Shown here: positions 35 through 20,841 of the stretch, one piece after another | Layout: the number at the start of each line of letters is the position of its first letter | Numbering within the stretch: position 1 is the first letter of the stretch | Assembly (NCBI GenBank): GCA_034717255.1 | Contig: JAYELE010000029.1 | Coordinates: 1 to 25,345, forward strand | Source of the DNA: Patescibacteria group bacterium | GTDB lineage: Bacteria; Patescibacteriota; Minisyncoccia; Minisyncoccales; JAGMDC01 | Direction: 5' to 3' | Length of the DNA: 25,345 nt | Notes under the pieces: generated by a model | The model's database searches: none | What the model was told of the DNA's origin: nothing | The model's input: only the letters and a program-made list of their open reading frames with translations | Position numbers and translations under genes: made by a program

Positions 35-3000
35 ATGAAATTTACTCACTTGCATGTTCACACGCATTATTCGCTTTTAGACGGCTTGTCAAAAATAGAC
101 GAGCTTTTGGATTACGCGCAAAAATTAAATATGGATTCTATTGCCATCACAGACCACGGAGTATTATACGGAGCCGTAGAATTTTACAAAAAAGCAAAAG
201 CAAAAGGAATAAAACCAATAATTGGATGCGAAGTTTATTGCGCCATAGACAGAATGGAACAATGCAGACCGAATATTGACAATAAAAGATATCATTTAGT
301 TTTATTAGCAAAAAACGAACAAGGATATAAAAACTTGGTTCAATTAGTGACGCAATCGCATCTTAAAGGTTTTTATTACAAACCCCGCGTTGATGAAGCG
401 CTTTTAGAAAAATACAGCGAGGGTCTTGTCGCGTTAAGCGCTTGTATTGGCGGGAAAATACCAAAATTGATTTTATCAAACCAAATTGAGGAAGCCGAAA
501 AAACAGCTTTGAAATACGAAAAAATATACGGAAAAGGAAATTTTTATTTAGAAATTCAACATCATCCTAATTTGCAGGGACAAGACAAAGTTAATGAACA
601 GTTAATCGCGTTTTCAAAAAAATTGGATATCCCATTAGTAGCTACTAATGATTGTCATTATCTGCGAAAAACTGATGATGAAGCGCAAGATATTTTAATG
701 CTTATAAATACTGAAGCAAAAATAGACGACGCAAATAGAAGAACAATGAAAGGAGAAGATTATTCCGTGAAAAGCCAAGAACAAATGATACAGGATTTCG
801 CAAATGTTCCAGAAGCAATAGAAAACACGCAAAAAATTGTTGAAAAATGCGTTTTTGAATTTAAACTTGGAGAAACTAAACTTCCATATTTTGAAACTCC
901 TGATAATCAAAATTCTGATGATTACTTAAAAGAATTATGTGAGCAAGGATTGATAAAAAGATTTGATATTCAAAATTTGGATAATGAAAATCAAAAAAAA
1001 GAAATAATAGATAGATTAAAATACGAACTTTCAATTATTAAACAAACAGGATTTGCCGGCTATTTCTTAATTGTTCAAGATTTCGTGAATTGGGCAAAAA
1101 GCAAACGAATAGCGGTTGGTCCGGGCAGAGGAAGCGCGGCAGGGTCTTTGGTTTCTTATCTTCTCAATATCACGGACATAGACCCGATAAAATACAATTT
1201 GTTGTTTGAAAGATTTTTAAATCCCGAGCGAATTTCAATGCCTGATATAGACCTTGATTTTACTGATTGGAGAAGAGATGAAGTGATAAATTATATAAAA
1301 GAAAAATACGGGCATAACAAAGTCGCGCAAATTATCACTTTTGGAACAATGGCGGCAAGAGCTGTGATAAGAGATGTTGGACGGGCTTTGCGAGAAGATT
1401 ATTCTTTTTGCGACCAATTGGCAAAAATGATTCCGCTTGGATTTGATTTGAACAAAACATTGGAAAAAATAGATGAATTCAAACAAATTTATCAATCAGA
1501 CGAAAGAGCCACAAAAATAATTGATTTTGCCAAACAATTAGAAGGATGCGTTAGACACGCATCAACTCACGCTTGCGGATTAGTAATTTCCAAAGACCCT
1601 TTAACTGATATGGTTCCTTCCCAATATCCGTCTCAAAAAGACCAAAGAATAATAACACAATATGGAATGCGTTCAATTGATGACCTGGGATTATTAAAAA
1701 TGGATTTATTGGGATTAAAAAATCTCACGATTATTGAAGACACGCTTGCGAGAATTTATAAAATCCATAATAAAAACATAATTATAGAAGATATCCCTTT
1801 AGACGACGCAAAAGTATATGAAATTTTGCGAAAAGCAGAAACCACAAGCGTATTCCAGTTGGAATCAGACGGAATGAAAAGATATTTAAAAAAACTTAAA
1901 CCAAGCGAATTTGAGGATATCATCGCTATGGTGTCTTTATACAGACCCGGACCTATGGCGTTTATTCCAGATTATATTAAGGGCAAAGAAAATCCAGCCA
2001 CAATAAAATATCTTCATCCAAAATTAAAACCAATACTGGAAAACACTTACGGAATAATGGTATATCAAGAACAACTAATGAAAATAGCGCGAGACATAGC
2101 CGGGTTTAGTTTGGGAGAAGCTGATATTTTAAGAAAAGCGGTCGGAAAAAAAATAAAAACATTGCTATTAGAGCAAAAAGAAAAATTTATTCAAGGAGCT
2201 TTAGATAATAAAATTGAAAAATCAATTTCCGAAAAAATTTGGGAATGGGTTTTGCCATTCGCGAGTTATGGATTTAACAGAAGTCACGGAGCTTCTTACG
2301 CGCTGATTGCTTACAGAACAGCTTATCTTAAAGCGCATTTTCCAATAGAATTTATGTCTGCCGTGCTCACTTCTGAAAAACAGGATATAGAAAAAATCGC
2401 ATTTTTAATTGAAGAATGTAAAAGAATGGAAATTGAAGTTTTGGGTCCAAACATCAATGAAAGTTTTAAAAATTTCAGTGTTATCCCTAATCAAAATAAA
2501 ATAAGGTTTGGTTTGCTTACCATTAAAAATGTTGGTCAGAACATAGTGGAAGCTATTGTTGAAGAAAGAACTAAAAATGGAAATTTTATTTCCATAACCG
2601 ATTTTATTGAAAGAATTGCGTCAAAAGATCTTAATAAAAGGTCAATGGAAAGTTTGATAAAAACAGGAGCTTTTGACATATTTAAAGAGAGAAACGCGCT
2701 TTTGCAAAATCTTGAAATTCTGTTAGAATTTAATAAAGAAATTCAAAAAAATAAAGCAAGTAATCAAAAAAGTTTATTTGACGCGCTTCCGGAGAACAGT
2801 CAAAAAAACAATATTGAAATTCGCTTGTCCCCTGCTGAGGAAATTTCTAAAAAAGAAAAATTAAATTGGGAAAAAGAACTTTTGGGATTATACATCAGCA
2901 GTCATCCATTAGACGATTATAAAAGCGTTTTTGAAAAAAATTATTTGCCTATATACAAAATTTCTGAAGATATTAAAGGAAAAATAGTAAAAATAGGAGG

Positions 3001-7268: not shown

Positions 7269-7294
7269 ATTTATAAATATATAAAACATCTTTG

Positions 7295-7303
7295 TTATTC
7301 ACA
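7295..7303 (+). promoter_or_regulatory. DnaA-box consensus match upstream of miaB
   Basis: TTATTCACA fits TTWTNCACA; single copy. Confidence 0.3.
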
Positions 7304-7360
7304 ATTTTCATCTTAAAATCTTTGATTTTTTATCAGAAAAATTATTAAGCAACAGGTCTA

Positions 7361-8731
7361 ATGAAATATTTTATTATAACTTTTGGTTGTCAAATGAATA
7401 AAACCGACTCGGAACGAATTGCCGGATATTTAGAAAAAAATAATTATAATTCTGCCTCAACAATAAATGAGGCAGATTTAATTATTGTTAATATGTGCTC
7501 TGTAAGACAAAGCGCTGTTGATAGAGTATATGGACAAATAAAAAATTTCAAAAAATTAAAACAAAAAAATCCTAAATTAAAAATCATTTTAACAGGATGT
7601 ATTCTAAAACAAGATTTTGAAAAATTAAAACAAAAATATCTTTCAAAAAAAAATCAGGGCTATGATTATATTCTGCCTATCAACTCTTTGCCACGCTGGA
7701 AAAACATTCTTAAACAAAAAAATATGTTTTCGCCAAAAAATTTAATTTACGCAAATTTTCAAAAAATCAATGAAAAATGCAAATTAAACGCAAATTATTT
7801 AAAAATTGCGCCAAAATATAAAACTAAATTTTCCGCTTATGTTCCTATTATCACAGGATGTAATAATTTTTGTTCATATTGCGTAGTCCCTTATACAAGA
7901 AGAAAAGAAATTTCAAGACCCGCAAACGACATTATAAATGAAATAAAAAAACTGATAAAAAATAATTATAAACATATCTGGCTAATAGGAGAAAATGTAA
8001 ATTCTTATTCATATACTGAAAAAAATACAAACAAAAAAATTAATTTTTCAAAATTATTATATATGACAAACCAAATTAAGGGCGATTTTTGGATTAGTTT
8101 TAGTTCTTCGCATCCTAAAGATTTTTCTGACGAATTGATAAAAACAATCGCTGAATGCGACAAAGTCGCAAAATACATAAGTTTGCCTGTCCAATCAGGA
8201 GATGATAAAATTTTAAAAAAAATGAACAGACCTTACACAATAAAACAATATAAAAATATAATTAAAAAAATTCGTGAAAAAATTCCAAGCGTTGTTTTGT
8301 CAACTGACGCCATAATCGGCTTTCCCAAAGAAACAAAAAAACAATTTGAAAATACTATAAAACTTTTCAAAGAGATCAAACCAGATATGGCTTATGTGGC
8401 GCGCTATTCTCCAAGACAAGGAACTCCGGCTTTTAATATGAAAGATAGTGTTTCTCTAAAAGAAAAACAATTAAGAGACAAAAAATTAACTGAAACATTA
8501 AAAAAAATCGCTATCGCGAAAAATAAAAAATATATAGGAAAAATCGCGCGCGTTCTTCCTGAATATGAAAGAAAAGGATATATTATTGGCAAAACAAAAG
8601 AATATAAAACAATTAAATTCAAAATCGCAAATTTCAATCCTCAAAGCGTAATCGGAAAATTCGTAAATGTAAAAATAACAAACGCTATTCCTTGGGGATT
8701 AAAAGGCGAATTAACAAATAACAAATTATAA
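7361..8731 (+). CDS. miaB: tRNA-2-methylthio-N6-dimethylallyladenosine synthase (radical SAM methylthiotransferase)
   Basis: TFGCQMNKTDSE, NMCSVRQSA, radical-SAM CNNFCSYC, LPVQSGDD, DAIIGFP, YSPRQGTPA, C-terminal TRAM-like domain. Confidence 0.93.
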   Translation: MKYFIITFGCQMNKTDSERIAGYLEKNNYNSASTINEADLIIVNMCSVRQSAVDRVYGQIKNFKKLKQKNPKLKIILTGCILKQDFEKLKQKYLSKKNQGYDYILPINSLPRWKNILKQKNMFSPKNLIYANFQKINEKCKLNANYLKIAPKYKTKFSAYVPIITGCNNFCSYCVVPYTRRKEISRPANDIINEIKKLIKNNYKHIWLIGENVNSYSYTEKNTNKKINFSKLLYMTNQIKGDFWISFSSSHPKDFSDELIKTIAECDKVAKYISLPVQSGDDKILKKMNRPYTIKQYKNIIKKIREKIPSVVLSTDAIIGFPKETKKQFENTIKLFKEIKPDMAYVARYSPRQGTPAFNMKDSVSLKEKQLRDKKLTETLKKIAIAKNKKYIGKIARVLPEYERKGYIIGKTKEYKTIKFKIANFNPQSVIGKFVNVKITNAIPWGLKGELTNNKL

Positions 8732-11065: not shown

Positions 11066-11214
11066 GCGAAGAAAACAACTTTTAATCAGGCTTTGAAACC
11101 AAAATGGGCAAAACTTTGCTTGGTTTTGTCGCAAAGCGACAAAATTTTGGTTAAAAACAAACGAACTTTTTGCGGAAAAAAGCAAACGACTGATTAAAGG
11201 TTGTATTTCATAGC
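11066..11214. repeat. About 150-bp imperfect palindromic element between rplJ and rplL
   Basis: Outer arms 11071-11089 / 11190-11209 (one G-T, one bulge); inner AACCAAAAT/ATTTTGGTT; central TTTTGTCGC-aaa-GCGACAAAA (11124-11144). Confidence 0.7.
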
Positions 11215-17101: not shown

Positions 17102-19201
17102 TTACACTTTAAAATTTTTTCTTTCTTTAAATTCTTGTTGTTTGCCTGTGTTAAATTGAGACACAGGTCTGAGATAACCAACAACTCTGGTATATACTTC
17201 ACAAGGCTGTTTAACAACGCATTTAGGGCATTCAAAATGTTCTCCCGCAATATACCCATGAACAGGACAAATAGAAAAAACAGGCGTGAAAGTTATATAC
17301 GGCAAATGATATTTTGTGAAAACTTTTTTAATTAAATTTTTAACCGCTTGAATATCAGATATTTTTTCTCCCGCAAAAATATGCAAAACAGTGCCTCCTG
17401 TGTAAGCACATTGAAGGTCGTCTTGCAATTTCAACGCTTCAAAAATATCGTCAGTATAATTAACAGGCAATTGCGTGGAATTTGTATAATACGGCGTTTC
17501 TTTTGTTCCCGCGGTAATAATGTCGGGATATTTTTCTCTATCCGCTTTTGCTTGACGATAACTTGTTCCTTCAGCCGGAGTAGCTTCAAGATTATATAAA
17601 TATCCTGTTTCCTCTTGATATTTAACCAACCTGTCGCGCATAAAATTTAAAATTTCCAACGCAAACTTCTTGCCTCTTCTTGAACCAATGTCTTCTCCTA
17701 TAAAATTCAAAAGCGCTTCATTCATTCCAACTAATCCAATAGTTGAAAAATGATTGCCAAAATAAGAATCTCTTATTTTCTTGATAGAACTTAAATAAAA
17801 TTTTGAATAAGGATATAATCCTTTTTCCATAAAATCTTCAATAGTTTTTCTTTTAATTTCTAAACTTTGTTTCGCCAAATCCATTAAATCGCTTAATTTT
17901 TCAAAAAATTCTTTTTTTGTTTTAGAAACATAACCAATTCTTGGCATATTTATAGTTACAACGCCGATTGACCCTGTTAAAGGAGCTGAACCAAACAATC
18001 CCCCTCCCCGTTTGTAAAGTTCTTTATTGTCTAACCGCAATCTGCAACACATACTTCTAAAATCCTCTGGATTCATATCTGATTCTAAAAAATTCGCAAA
18101 ATAATTTATTCCGTATTTTACCGTCGCTTCCCACATTGGCTCCAAATTTTTATCATCCCATGGAAAATCATTGGTAATATTGATAGTTGGAATAGGAAAA
18201 GTAAAAGGTCTGCCTTTTGCGTCGCCCTCCATCATACATTCATAAAAAGCTTTATTAAAAATACCCATTTCTTCTTGAAACTCGCCATAATTTTCTTTTT
18301 GCGGTTTTCCGCCGATAATCACGGGTATTTTTGACAAAAATGAAGGAACCGCGACATCAATAGAAACATTTAAAAAAGGAGTTTGAAATCCAACTCTTGT
18401 CGGAACCATACAATTATATAAAAATTCTTGCATCGCTTGTTTTGTTTGCGCGTAATTAAGATTATCGTATCTAATAAACGGAGCCAATAAAGTGTCAAAA
18501 TTAGACACAGCTTGAGCTCCGGCGCTCTCTCCTTGAACAGTAAAAAAGAAATTCACTAATTGCCCAAGCGCTGTTCTAAAATGTTTTGGAGGTCTGCTTT
18601 CCAATTTTGACGGCACTCCTCCAAAACCTTTTAATAAAATATCATAAAGATCCCAACCGCAACAATAAGTGCTTATACTTTCCAAATCATGAATATGTAT
18701 TTCTTCTTGTTTAGCGTGTTCGCGAATTTTTCCAGGATAAATTTTATTTAACCAATATTTCTTAGCAACAGACGAAATAACATATTGATTTAATCCTTGC
18801 AAAGAATAAGTCATATTGGCGTTTTCATGCACTTGCCAATCAAGTTCTTGCAAATACTTGTCAACCATTTCAACTGATTCATCAAAAATCATTCCTGTTT
18901 CTCTAATCATTCTTCTTTGTTCGCGATATAAAATATACGCTTTTGCGACTTCAACTAAATCCTCTAAAATTAAAACTTCTTCTATTATGTCTTGAACCTG
19001 TTCCACATTTGGTATTTCATTTCCCTTAAACCTTCTATTTAACAATTTCATCACTTTTTTCAAAAGTTTTTTTGAACATTCTCCGTTATGTTCGCCAATA
19101 GCTGTAATAGCTTTAAAAATAGCGTTCTTAATTTTTTCCGCGTCAAAATCAATAATATCCTGATTTCGTTTTTTAATTTTAGTGATTTTATTTTCTATCA
19201 T
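17102..19201 (-). CDS. nrdD: Class III anaerobic ribonucleoside-triphosphate reductase with ATP cone
   Basis: N-terminal ATP cone (IKKRNQDIIDFDAEKI), YCCGW, SMCCRL, EATPAEG, CPVHG..CPKC, glycyl-radical loop YTRVVGYLRPV. Confidence 0.95.
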   Translation of the reverse strand: MIENKITKIKKRNQDIIDFDAEKIKNAIFKAITAIGEHNGECSKKLLKKVMKLLNRRFKGNEIPNVEQVQDIIEEVLILEDLVEVAKAYILYREQRRMIRETGMIFDESVEMVDKYLQELDWQVHENANMTYSLQGLNQYVISSVAKKYWLNKIYPGKIREHAKQEEIHIHDLESISTYCCGWDLYDILLKGFGGVPSKLESRPPKHFRTALGQLVNFFFTVQGESAGAQAVSNFDTLLAPFIRYDNLNYAQTKQAMQEFLYNCMVPTRVGFQTPFLNVSIDVAVPSFLSKIPVIIGGKPQKENYGEFQEEMGIFNKAFYECMMEGDAKGRPFTFPIPTINITNDFPWDDKNLEPMWEATVKYGINYFANFLESDMNPEDFRSMCCRLRLDNKELYKRGGGLFGSAPLTGSIGVVTINMPRIGYVSKTKKEFFEKLSDLMDLAKQSLEIKRKTIEDFMEKGLYPYSKFYLSSIKKIRDSYFGNHFSTIGLVGMNEALLNFIGEDIGSRRGKKFALEILNFMRDRLVKYQEETGYLYNLEATPAEGTSYRQAKADREKYPDIITAGTKETPYYTNSTQLPVNYTDDIFEALKLQDDLQCAYTGGTVLHIFAGEKISDIQAVKNLIKKVFTKYHLPYITFTPVFSICPVHGYIAGEHFECPKCVVKQPCEVYTRVVGYLRPVSQFNTGKQQEFKERKNFKV

Positions 19202-19323
19202 AGTAAAAAAAATTGCTATTAAAGCATAAATTATATTATTCTGCGTTCTTATTCTATCTTACTCTTTATATCAAAACAGGTCAAATTGCGCACATTCGCA
19301 TTACTCTATTTAAAAAAATAAAG

Positions 19324-19332
19324 TTATCCACA
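19324..19332 (+). promoter_or_regulatory. Perfect DnaA box upstream of nrdD
   Basis: TTATCCACA, about 120 bp upstream of the nrdD start. Confidence 0.5.
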
Positions 19333-19393
19333 AAAATTTTATCTTTTCATGCGCTTAATTTCTTGCTTATCAAAAACAAAATTTGTCAAGCGC

Positions 19394-19436
19394 TTAAAAT
19401 AATATTTTTTGTCTAATTAACTTCTTTTTTTCCTTT
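19394..19436 (-). pseudogene. Detached putative original 3' end of the EndoQ gene (K-E-K-K-K-L-I-R-Q-K-I-L-F-stop)
   Basis: Open frame 19435-19394 ending TAA; joins the EndoQ frame exactly if 19437-19600 is removed. Confidence 0.6.
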
Positions 19437-19598
19437 AGAGAGAACAAAGCAATATCATTTCTACTACAACACGAGAATTTTGGCTACGAATTATTCAGAA
19501 CTCGTTAGCGTATCTTTCAGATATGCTTCCTCTTTCTTCATAATTCTCGCTCAAAATCCTCGTGCCTCGTTACGAAAGCATATTGCATTGTTCTCTCT
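19437..19598. mobile_element. 162-bp MITE-like palindromic element with 19-bp terminal inverted repeats
   Basis: AGAGAGAACAAAGCAATAT (19437-19455) vs 19580-19598, one mismatch; nested inner helices; flanked by TT/TT (or CTTT/CTTT); no transposase in window. Confidence 0.65.
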
Positions 19599-20841
19599 TT
19601 TTAGAAAAAATTTTTATCTTCCCAAATACTCCGTCATATCCCGGCTCAATATTAATATCTCCGTTTCTCGCTTTTATAATTCCTTCCGCTATTTGAGACA
19701 ATGTAGCTGAACACAAATCTGATTGCGAAACATTAAGCAAGATATTAAATTCGTTTTCAAAATTTTTAATTAAATTATTATATTGTTCCGTTACTCTCTT
19801 TGTGGCAACTCCTGTTCCAACGCATTCAGCGATTATTTCTCGCAAAGGAATTAAACTTTTGAAAGGAACAAAATTTTTAGATTTAAATCCTTGCGGTTTA
19901 TCCGATATTTGCTCTACCCTATTCATAACTCCCACTGTCAACGGTTTTCCGCAATTTGGACAAATATTATTATATTTTTTTGATTCATTTGACGATAAAT
20001 TAACATCGCATTGTCTATGTCCGTCATTAAAATACTTGCCTTCTTGAGGATAAAATTCAATAGTATAAAGCAATTCCAAAATGGCCGAGGACTGTCCTTG
20101 ACCAAATCTGCTTTTATTTTTAATAGCTTGCGTAATTGCTTGATAACTAATTTCTTTGCCTTGAAAAACATTTGCTTCTCTGCCTAATTTAGCCGGACTG
20201 TGCGCGTCGCTGTTTGAAAGTAAACAAACATTTCTTATATCTGGAATTCTACAAAGCATTGACGGATCCGCGGACAACCCTGTTTCTACGGCAAAAATAT
20301 ATTTTGTATATTCTTCAAAACACTCTTCCATAGAATCAAATCCTGATTTAGATCCAAATAAACCAAACCATGGGGTCATACAATGAGCTGGAATAACTAA
20401 ACAATCTTTTGAAACATCTAAAACAATTTTTGTTAATTCTTTTGCATCTAATCCTAAAATCGGACGGCCGTCCGCTTTTAAGTTTCCTATTTTTGCCAAC
20501 TTCATATTGATTTTTTCAACAACTGTCAATGACGGAGCTAAAACAATAATATGAATTTTTCTTACTTTTCCAGCTTTTGAATAAATACAACTAATCTCGC
20601 TTGTTAAAATAAATCTTGCGCTTTGTTTATTCGCGTTTTTTTTTAATTTATACAATCCTTGTTCAGCAGGCTCTAATTTTTGTTTTAAATTTTTAAACCA
20701 TTCTGGATGCGTAAAATCCCCTGTCGCTAAAACATTTATTCCTTTAATTCTCGCAAACTCGTCTAAAACCTCCAAATTCATTTGTGGAGAAGTCGCTCGC
20801 GAATATTTAGAATGAATATGAAAATCAACTATGTATTTCAT
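19570..20841 (-). CDS. Endonuclease Q-family PHP-domain DNA repair nuclease
   Basis: DFHIHSKYSRATS, ATGDFTHP, IPAHCMTPW, ETGLSAD, SNSDAHS, YPQEGKYFNDGHRQC, CPNCG, PGYDGVFG. Confidence 0.85.
   Translation of the reverse strand: MKYIVDFHIHSKYSRATSPQMNLEVLDEFARIKGINVLATGDFTHPEWFKNLKQKLEPAEQGLYKLKKNANKQSARFILTSEISCIYSKAGKVRKIHIIVLAPSLTVVEKINMKLAKIGNLKADGRPILGLDAKELTKIVLDVSKDCLVIPAHCMTPWFGLFGSKSGFDSMEECFEEYTKYIFAVETGLSADPSMLCRIPDIRNVCLLSNSDAHSPAKLGREANVFQGKEISYQAITQAIKNKSRFGQGQSSAILELLYTIEFYPQEGKYFNDGHRQCDVNLSSNESKKYNNICPNCGKPLTVGVMNRVEQISDKPQGFKSKNFVPFKSLIPLREIIAECVGTGVATKRVTEQYNNLIKNFENEFNILLNVSQSDLCSATLSQIAEGIIKARNGDINIEPGYDGVFGKIKIFSKKREQCNMLS

Follow-up and report, generated by a model that had tools for sequence, protein, structure and literature searches.

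A mobile hairpin repeat inserted at the end of endoQ displaces a conserved, putatively clamp-binding tail in a Patescibacteria bacterium

The window analysed here, a 25,345-nucleotide stretch of DNA from a Patescibacteria group bacterium, carries on its minus strand endoQ, which encodes a homolog of endonuclease Q (a PHP-domain DNA-repair nuclease specific for lesions, nicking 5′ of dU, dI and AP sites), with nrdD as its downstream neighbour (Table 1). The host is an ultra-small brine bacterium. An imperfect palindrome overlaps the 3′ end of endoQ, and the final eight codons and the stop of the gene fall within it, giving the present C-terminus ...KIFSKK-REQCNMLS. The original prediction, made from the letters alone, had delimited this 162-bp element, its 19-bp terminal inverted repeats and the residues that it supplies to EndoQ; the sequence, the list of open reading frames and the termini, which differ at one position, agree with that description.

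Table 1 Coordinates of the features at the endoQ locus and of the DnaE motif used for comparison.
Feature	Position	Strand	Basis
Inserted palindromic non-coding mobile element, 162 bp	19437..19598	minus (hairpin-favoured; the endoQ sense strand)	termini, fold, empty sites, family HMM
Left terminal inverted repeat, 19 bp, AGAGAGAACAAAGCAATAT	19437..19455	plus	sequence comparison
Right terminal inverted repeat, 19 bp, one mismatch to left	19580..19598	minus	sequence comparison
Left target-site duplication copy, TTT on the plus strand (TT only if the element is 162 bp)	19434..19436		sequence
Right target-site duplication copy, TTT on the plus strand, overlapping the last base of the repeat terminus	19598..19600		sequence
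endoQ, present form, 423 aa	19570..20841	minus	ORF list and sequence
New EndoQ tail REQCNMLS and TAA stop (19570-19572), element-derived, in the 5′ arm of the hairpin	19570..19596	minus	sequence, ORF list, fold
Displaced ancestral tail EKKKLIRQKILF and TAA stop; QKILF codons 19397-19411	19394..19432	minus	translation, family consensus match
nrdD (anaerobic ribonucleotide reductase), downstream gene	17102..19201	minus	Pfam NRDD, E = 2.4e-196
QKSLF in DnaE of the same genome, usual internal clamp-binding position, in-genome motif comparator	2765..2779	plus	sequence

The encoded enzyme is similar over its full length to PfuEndoQ (PDB 5zb8 and 7k30; 5zb8, E = 1.4e-53, residues 6–412 aligned). All six zinc ligands (H8, H10, E76, H84, H139 and D193 in Pfu numbering, with the metal-ligand residues as named in PMC5961232) are identical in the window protein, and the catalytic residues and PHP nuclease core are intact. 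The NCBIfam model TIGR00375 is covered in its entirety (E = 1.7e-57) with 195.6 bits against a curated cut-off of 326.6, the window EndoQ being a divergent branch relative to that model; its homologs carry the source annotation endonuclease Q family.

The region 19425–19610 folds as a single long hairpin of −77.3 kcal/mol, compared with a mean of −35.3 for shuffled sequences (z = −10.2), and none of 200 shuffles folded as well. Folding of the element is better by 13.6 kcal/mol on the minus strand than on the plus strand, and its arms are imperfect, with 73% self-complementarity by BLAST. The boundary is ambiguous within a T/A run, such that 162 bp plus TT, 161 bp plus TTT and 160 bp plus CTTT are equivalent descriptions; the reading with a 3-bp duplication matches the 3-bp AT-rich target duplications that flank other copies of the repeat family described below. 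An Rfam search of 19200–19800 at E ≤ 1 found no RNA family, intron or ribozyme, returning only a chance sub-threshold match to a snoRNA.

Beyond the element, 19394–19435 on the minus strand reads in frame 1 as KEKKKLIRQKILF followed by a stop. Deleting 19437–19600, a net 164 bp, had been predicted to restore the endoQ frame into a hidden tail ending in QKILF, and translation bears this out: the gene then reads ...IFSKK-EKKKLIRQKILF and stops, yielding a 427-residue protein equal in length to its closest homolog (P0002). Only a net removal of 164 bp gives back the frame, and the insertion point lies 35 bases upstream of the original end of endoQ. The hidden tail fits the consensus of the homolog family, ...IFSKxExKxxxxQxxLF followed by a stop. 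This ending is strongly conserved among 119 EndoQ homologs (63–86% identity), 108 of which terminate exactly in Q-x-x-L-F, with Q..[LIMV][FLYW] no more than three residues from the C-terminus in 117. The present tail REQCNMLS has no Q-x-x-L-F-type pattern and, among the 120 proteins compared, ends the window protein alone.

Close relatives retain the uninterrupted gene. Just as the original prediction had expected of them, all seven same-family genomes encode QK(T/I)LF followed immediately by the stop, with no element. A syntenic relative (L022/L023; 86% amino-acid identity), which shares the gene order HisK–permease–endoQ–nrdD, lacks exactly the element block, and both flanks align. A contig from another study (X5), about 96% identical, skips 19400–19601 and has instead 39 letters that encode ...GEKKLIRQKILF in frame. 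These empty sites agree with the proposal that the insertion is recent: it postdates the separation from a lineage whose DNA differs by about 4%. It had also been suggested to look for REQCNMLS-like tails in relatives, for conservation of the element in place and for a chimeric assembly. Neither of the first two was found: no homolog has such a tail, and the element is absent from the seven same-family genomes, from L022/L023 and from the X5 contig.

A chimeric or mis-joined palindrome, with the true endoQ uninterrupted, would be a trivial explanation, since amplified or mis-assembled metagenomic DNA can yield palindromes, and the contigs of one assembly (X2) break beside the left junction (19390/19442), possibly a sign of low depth or heterogeneity. 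The arms here are imperfect, however, unlike those of a perfect palindrome made by artefact; a target duplication is present; and the repeat family has members in 33 other genomes. Furthermore, two independent contigs (X1, 6,776 nt, and X3, 723 nt) cross the element with 0 differences and span both junctions. An assembly artefact is accordingly extremely improbable. Two independent brine-sample assemblies carry the element, so that in at least two brine samples it is the allele with the insertion that was assembled; presence and absence were judged from assembled contigs, beside which a minority element-free allele may exist in the source sample.

The element belongs to a family of hairpin repeats (nhmmer, E = 1.1e-38) whose members occur in 34 of 401 genomes from the order, with at least 10 copies in G088, at least 7 in G217 and at least 4 in G197, and 0 hits in controls. 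A first BLAST search against the genome of origin had implied that the element was a lone copy; the core pattern and the family HMM revised this, revealing five further full copies and two half copies, for 6 full and 2 half copies overall. The five other full copies form a different subfamily, 93–98% identical among themselves and about 52% identical to the endoQ copy, whose own subfamily has a single copy in this genome. Across the family, strong compensatory covariation accompanies a strand-specific fold with conserved G–U pairs. Conservation is higher in the internal loops and core than in the termini, which covary between subfamilies. Other copies are intergenic and point either way with respect to the adjacent genes, a mixture that rules out a simple role as a 3′ untranslated region or leader. 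At E ≤ 1 the family HMM did not detect a 150-bp palindrome elsewhere in the window (11066–11214), which was rejected as a member.

Terminal inverted repeats, a target duplication with a corresponding empty site, and dispersed copies, the hallmarks of a MITE, are all present, and the element is a MITE-like non-autonomous transposable repeat of the ERIC/Correia type. A donor or sister copy of its subfamily was found neither in genome_contigs nor in metagenome_contigs. The exact 19-mer terminus occurs 12 times in the former set and 26 times in the latter, always singly, and these are chance matches, because none is a family member by the HMM. Our search for an autonomous element with matching termini found none: the one candidate, a pair of terminus-pattern matches 1.8 kb apart on contig C39, encloses ordinary genes and not an insertion sequence, the interval holding the start of a recombinase-like open reading frame and a 238-residue frame that, read by eye, we take to be uppS. 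A Y1 (IS200-type) transposase was rejected as the mobiliser, as Y1_Tnp, present in the genome of origin and in three of four other genomes searched, went undetected in G088, where copies are most numerous, and the copies have target duplications. Descent from IS200/IS605-type palindromic elements or REPINs was set aside for the 3-bp duplications and the lack of tracking with Y1_Tnp, the strand-specific hairpin being the sole feature that fits.

What the displaced tail did can be approached by comparison. The alignment of the window EndoQ to the PfuEndoQ structure stops at residue 412 (Pfu 383), placing the hidden motif beyond the fold. In PfuEndoQ itself, the region past residue 400 is disordered and not needed for cleavage, and PfuEndoQ(1-400) cuts like the wild type (PMC5961232). 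In archaea, EndoQ attaches to PCNA by a PIP box at its C-terminus with a KD of 55 nM, and C-terminal β-clamp consensus motifs were pointed out in bacterial homologs, the interaction being left untested (Shiraishi et al. 2016, PMC4858679). The hidden QKILF matches the β-clamp-binding pentapeptide pattern (Q-L-[SD]-L-F type, Q-x-x-L-F), and DnaE of the same genome has, as had been predicted, QKSLF at the usual internal clamp-binding position, near residue 914 of a 1,066-residue open frame. We therefore propose that the Q-x-x-L-F tail of EndoQ is a putative tether to the β sliding clamp.

The tail could instead bind a partner other than the clamp, or be structural, in which case the insertion would remove some other function. 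The literature that we consulted holds no binding test of any bacterial EndoQ, and a complex prediction for DnaN (L024:1495-2616:-) with the 13-residue hidden tail, run without controls, scored 0.02 and gives no verdict. Against such a role stand the fit of the motif to the clamp-binding pentapeptide, its place at the extreme C-terminus behind a charged linker, where archaeal EndoQ has its PIP box, and its likeness to the DnaE motif; a non-clamp function seems quite unlikely.

Taken together, the comparisons suggest the following sequence of events. A non-autonomous hairpin-forming repeat inserted in A-rich codons of the lysine-rich linker that precedes the Q-x-x-L-F of EndoQ, duplicating 2–3 bp of target; a preference for A/T runs may be the reason for the choice of site. 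Because the net gain of 164 bp cannot be divided by 3, translation would now enter the element for eight codons and then stop. The 12 residues of the ancestral tail, EKKKLIRQKILF, would remain encoded just downstream, untranslated. EndoQ would thereby lose the short linear motif that putatively tethers it to the β sliding clamp, while the element-bearing enzyme is predicted still to nick DNA at deaminated bases. As the catalytic residues are intact, the likely effect of the insertion would be loss of β-clamp coupling; uncoupling from the clamp is probable on the strength of the motif, the DnaE QKSLF and the archaeal PIP-box precedent (PMC4858679). Overall, we consider insertion of a mobile hairpin that swapped the clamp-type tail of EndoQ the best explanation, with a probability of about 0.8. 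The type of event, a small repeat landing at a gene end, is ordinary and well known.

The original prediction had further speculated that the tail is restored after transcription, either by excision of the hairpin from the mRNA and rejoining of the ends or by ribosomes hopping from the AAG codon at 19599–19597 to that at 19435–19433, and this finds no support. The element does fold better on the endoQ sense strand, the base of the hairpin juxtaposes two identical AAG/AAAG junctions, and the hidden tail is still intact, although an intact tail is uninformative for an event this recent. Matched AAG codons bracketing a structured untranslated gap recall the bypass in T4 gene 60, but the take-off codon is followed by AGA where gene 60 has a stop, the distance to be crossed is 164 nt compared with 50 nt, and neither a nascent-peptide signal nor the bypassed product is in evidence. 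Excision is opposed by the lack of an intron or ribozyme family at E ≤ 1 in Rfam, and the RtcB ligase, required for cutting and rejoining RNA, was not found in the 91%-complete genome. Because the other copies are intergenic in either orientation, the family does not appear shaped for in-frame removal. Either route to the tail is hardly credible; if one did operate, part of the EndoQ would keep QKILF, and the mobile hairpin would be an intervening sequence of a bacterial protein gene that can be removed, possibly depending on conditions.

The insertion could also act chiefly through RNA, the 160-nt hairpin being cut by RNase III, stabilising the mRNA or terminating transcription and thereby changing endoQ or nrdD expression, with tail loss secondary. 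Correia and ERIC repeats are processed within transcripts. The strand-specific fold and conserved G–U pairs of the family, the RNase III encoded in the genome, and the position of the new stop codon within the hairpin stem are all in keeping with this account. Several observations weigh against it, namely the occurrence of copies in both orientations relative to their neighbours, the lack of a U-tract downstream of the hairpin on the sense strand, and the state of the nrdD spacer. From 19393 to the nrdD start, this spacer mostly aligns with that of a relative, apart from small indels and an extra segment of about 32 bp near the start, and the insertion has therefore left it untouched. The conserved hexamers that it contains look promoter-like, although only one of them matches the consensus, weakly, at 9 of 12 positions. 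A chiefly RNA-level effect is unlikely, if not negligibly so, and it is compatible with the explanation by tail loss, not a replacement for it.

The near-invariance of the Q-x-x-L-F end in 119 homologs makes the clamp proposal concrete for a lineage that is uncultured and has very few repair genes. In the window there is a natural allele in which only the EndoQ tail is replaced, and close relatives retain that tail, providing a clean pair for biochemistry as well as for comparison of mutation spectra between populations. Separately, the hairpin-repeat family is documented across an order of ultra-small bacteria, with its structure kept by compensatory changes on one strand, and it bears on repeat mobility and on the reshaping of gene ends in tiny genomes.

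The closest parallels to the element are ERIC/IRU of enterobacteria and Correia/NEMIS of Neisseria, which are likewise imperfect palindromes of about 130–160 bp, bounded by inverted termini, flanked by short AT-rich duplications of the target, non-coding, dispersed mostly in short gene-adjoining spacers, and forming long hairpins once transcribed. The present family differs in having no sequence relation to them (no Rfam match), a host order of ultra-small Patescibacteria-type bacteria, a 3-bp duplication and not TA, termini less conserved than the core, and no cognate transposase found. Rickettsia palindromic elements (RPEs) also lie within coding sequence and add residues to a protein; RPEs are in-frame and read through, whereas the window copy, at 164 bp, shifts the frame and brings its own TAA after eight codons, with loss of the original C-terminus.

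For the protein, the comparison is with ΔPIP mutants of archaeal EndoQ from T. kodakarensis and P. furiosus, members of the same enzyme family in which the clamp-ligand motif also sits at the extreme C-terminus, past the folded domains. Without that motif, the archaeal enzymes keep their basal nuclease activity but neither bind the clamp nor are stimulated by it (PMC4858679). The window differs in that the loss is natural and caused by a mobile element, DnaN takes the place of PCNA as the clamp, the motif is of the five-residue bacterial type (QKILF) and not Qxxhxxaa, and eight foreign residues are added; the loss of clamp binding and stimulation, measured for the archaeal mutants, is one that we infer here. 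On these grounds, the window EndoQ may be viewed as a natural equivalent of the laboratory ΔPIP mutants of archaeal EndoQ.

The window's endoQ lies on the minus strand in the order histidine kinase, Trp/Tyr-type permease, endoQ, nrdD, on contig C29 of a 685-kb genome (115 contigs, 91% complete). Its product aligns with P. furiosus EndoQ, whose structure is solved (E = 1.4e-53, residues 6–412), and the archaeal enzyme's six essential metal ligands (H8, H10, E76, H84, H139 and D193; PMC5961232) are all identical in the alignment. The source labels of EndoQ homologs are Parcubacteria or Patescibacteria, and the window DNA is present in brine metagenome runs. The protein ends in ...KIFSKK-REQCNMLS, and the eight REQCNMLS codons and the TAA stop fall within a 162-bp block (19437–19598) that has 19-bp inverted termini with one mismatch between them and forms a single long imperfect hairpin (−77.3 kcal/mol, z = −10.2 versus shuffles). 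Because frame 1 of the minus strand just past the block (19394–19435) translates as KEKKKLIRQKILF and a stop, a net removal of 164 bp fuses ...IFSKK to EKKKLIRQKILF and a stop, giving 427 aa, the same length as the closest homolog. Sequence, fold and termini thus bear out the original prediction of a 162-bp element with 19-bp terminal inverted repeats that supplies the end of EndoQ, and the proposed 164-bp deletion does restore the frame. Since the junction sits in an A/T run, the window copy alone fits 162 bp plus TT, 161 bp plus TTT and 160 bp plus CTTT equally well.

Of the 119 best homologs (63–86% identity), Q-x-x-L-F is the exact ending of 108, and 117 have Q-x-x-[LIMV]-[FLYW] at most three residues from the end, the most frequent tails being QKTLF, QGTLF and QGILF. 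In this comparison of 120 proteins, REQCNMLS ends the window protein alone. In each of the seven other genomes from the taxonomic family, endoQ is uninterrupted and its stop comes immediately after QK(T/I)LF; the linker consensus ...IFSKxExKxxxxQxxLF matches the hidden tail in length and character. The relatives are thus as had been predicted, and the hidden tail, ending in QKILF, is the ancestral EndoQ tail. In one homolog (P0052; contigs L087 and L088 from two runs, at about 1630–1660), TAA replaces the Q codon, giving ...IPNK-stop-KTLF-stop. Either a point change has caused a second, independent natural loss of the motif, or the two runs share a sequencing error; the case suggests that loss of the tail is occasionally tolerated.

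P0002, the closest full-length relative (86% identity), is found on two contigs with this gene order retained, and in the DNA alignment both flanks match while exactly the 19437–19598 block is absent. From 19393 to the nrdD start, the spacer largely aligns with that of the relative, with small indels and an extra segment of ~32 bp, so the insertion left it untouched. The spacer contains conserved promoter-like hexamers, read from conservation, of which just one matches the consensus, and weakly. The ~32-bp stretch, at about 19205–19240 just upstream of the nrdD start (alignment columns ~419–450), is absent in the 86% relative and forms a second small indel of the spacer. A 352-nt contig from a different study, a volcano metagenome (run X5), shares ~96% identity with the window (9 differences over 241 aligned bases); it omits 19400–19601 and has instead 39 letters coding ...GEKKLIRQKILF in frame with the endoQ body, which makes the insertion younger than ~4% DNA divergence. 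This contig, over 19328–19842, has an apparent T5 versus T4 in the window after QKILF, which would give QKILFLSA and a stop; it is a single contig at 3.7x, and the T5 may be a homopolymer error.

An assembly artefact, the chimera that could have undone the prediction, is excluded at the contig level: a 6,776-nt contig from brine run X1, the probable source sample, and an independent 723-nt contig from another brine sample (X3) each span both junctions with zero differences. Low-depth contigs of a third brine run (X2) break off at 19390 and 19442, reflecting coverage drop-out or heterogeneity. The element is real DNA and, this being a contig-level view, may coexist with a minority element-free allele.

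Family matches occur in 34 of the 401 genomes searched within the order, across many taxonomic families. The family core (query positions about 18–141) is 72–82% identical and the termini are more variable; a 24-nt conserved core pattern matches at least 10, 7 and 4 times in three genomes with the family (reversed-pattern control, 0). By a family HMM, the window's own genome holds six full and two half copies. Five full copies are 93–98% identical to one another, and their common termini begin AGACCTGTTGC. Against these five, the endoQ copy reaches an identity of just about 52%; its nearest relatives are in a genome from another family (74–81%), which makes it an orphan from a different subfamily. 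Many family copies have 3-bp AT-rich direct repeats on either side (AAT, TAT, ATT, ATA), which the 161 bp plus TTT reading of the endoQ copy fits. The other copies sit in short spacers, in both orientations and typically a few to tens of bases away from where a gene starts or stops; the lysine codons of the EndoQ linker, being A-rich, resemble such a spacer, which may explain the choice of target. The family is a useful by-product of the EndoQ analysis.

One half copy ends ...TTATTAAGCAACAGGTCT and adjoins the ATG at 7361 of a 456-aa ORF. On contig C90 of the same genome (locus L045), a repeat copy provides the final five codons (RPIT) and also the stop for a 315-aa ORF, which by eye we take to be ABC-ATPase-like, and stops 7 nt before the ATG of the next gene; this is the second gene end in the genome that runs into a repeat copy. 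The palindrome between rplJ and rplL has no match to the endoQ-element family HMM at E≤1, which agrees with its being a separate family. A search via the termini found no autonomous partner of the element, and Y1 transposases do not track the distribution of copies. Y1-domain frames like those of the window's genome occur in three related genomes; none was found in G088, the genome richest in hairpin repeats.

Coordinates of genes, repeat copies and transposase frames in the window and its genome
Feature	Location	Strand	Details
endoQ	19570..20841	-	423 aa
nrdD	17102..19201	-	
Half copy (one arm) of the five-copy subfamily	7293-7363	-	terminus pattern; family HMM E 0.003
Palindrome	11066-11214		~150 bp
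Repeat copy	C90:3807-3971		
ORF ending in repeat copy	C90:2876-3823		
Y1 (IS200-type) transposase-domain open frames	C1:1317-1547; C19:280-585		213-268 aa

Seventeen copies from 17 genomes, once aligned, give a consensus hairpin of 58 pairs. Standard pairs fill 91% of cells, versus 83% in shuffles and 33–47% with partners slid by 1–3 columns, and 31 pairs show compensatory double changes (shuffle mean 18.5; 0 of 500 shuffles reach 31). Folded alone on both strands, all 17 copies prefer the same strand by 7–26 kcal/mol, a comparison free of the bias that the strand used in prediction brings to the count of 77 G-U versus 28 A-C pairings on the favoured strand. The core and internal loops are more conserved across the order's families than the termini, which differ among subfamilies yet stay complementary. 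The compensatory changes and the shared strand preference therefore show selection on a single-stranded hairpin of one polarity, as RNA or single-stranded DNA. The favoured strand in the window is the endoQ sense strand, so the hairpin should be present in endoQ mRNA, its 5′ arm containing the new stop codon. The genome has an RNase III gene. The hairpin could plausibly influence endoQ expression at the RNA level, which is compatible with loss of the tail. Restoration of the tail by ribosomal bypass or RNA excision, the alternative first raised with the prediction, is very improbable, since the features needed are absent: no stop follows the take-off codon and the gap is 164 nt, while for excision no intron or ribozyme family matched and RtcB was not found in the genome.

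The insertion swaps a 12-residue tail for eight unrelated residues and leaves every folded domain intact. PfuEndoQ(1-400) cleaves as the wild type does (PMC5961232). The C-terminal PIP box of archaeal EndoQ binds PCNA with a KD of 55 nM, and its deletion abolishes binding and stimulation but keeps basal cleavage; the same study pointed out beta-clamp-type motifs at the C-termini of bacterial EndoQ homologs, leaving the interaction untested (PMC4858679). DnaE of the window's genome has, as first reported, QKSLF at the canonical internal clamp-binding position. On these grounds we interpret the allele as a naturally tail-less EndoQ that would be catalytically competent yet have lost recruitment and stimulation by DnaN, the beta sliding clamp; the proposed uncoupling of EndoQ from the clamp is upheld as the likely effect, with binding inferred from the motif and archaeal analogy. 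Replacement of the tail by a repeat is a neat, testable consequence. As an event it belongs to a familiar type, the insertion of a small palindromic repeat at the end of a gene, and the tail has the same C-terminal position as the archaeal PIP box, although there the clamp is PCNA.
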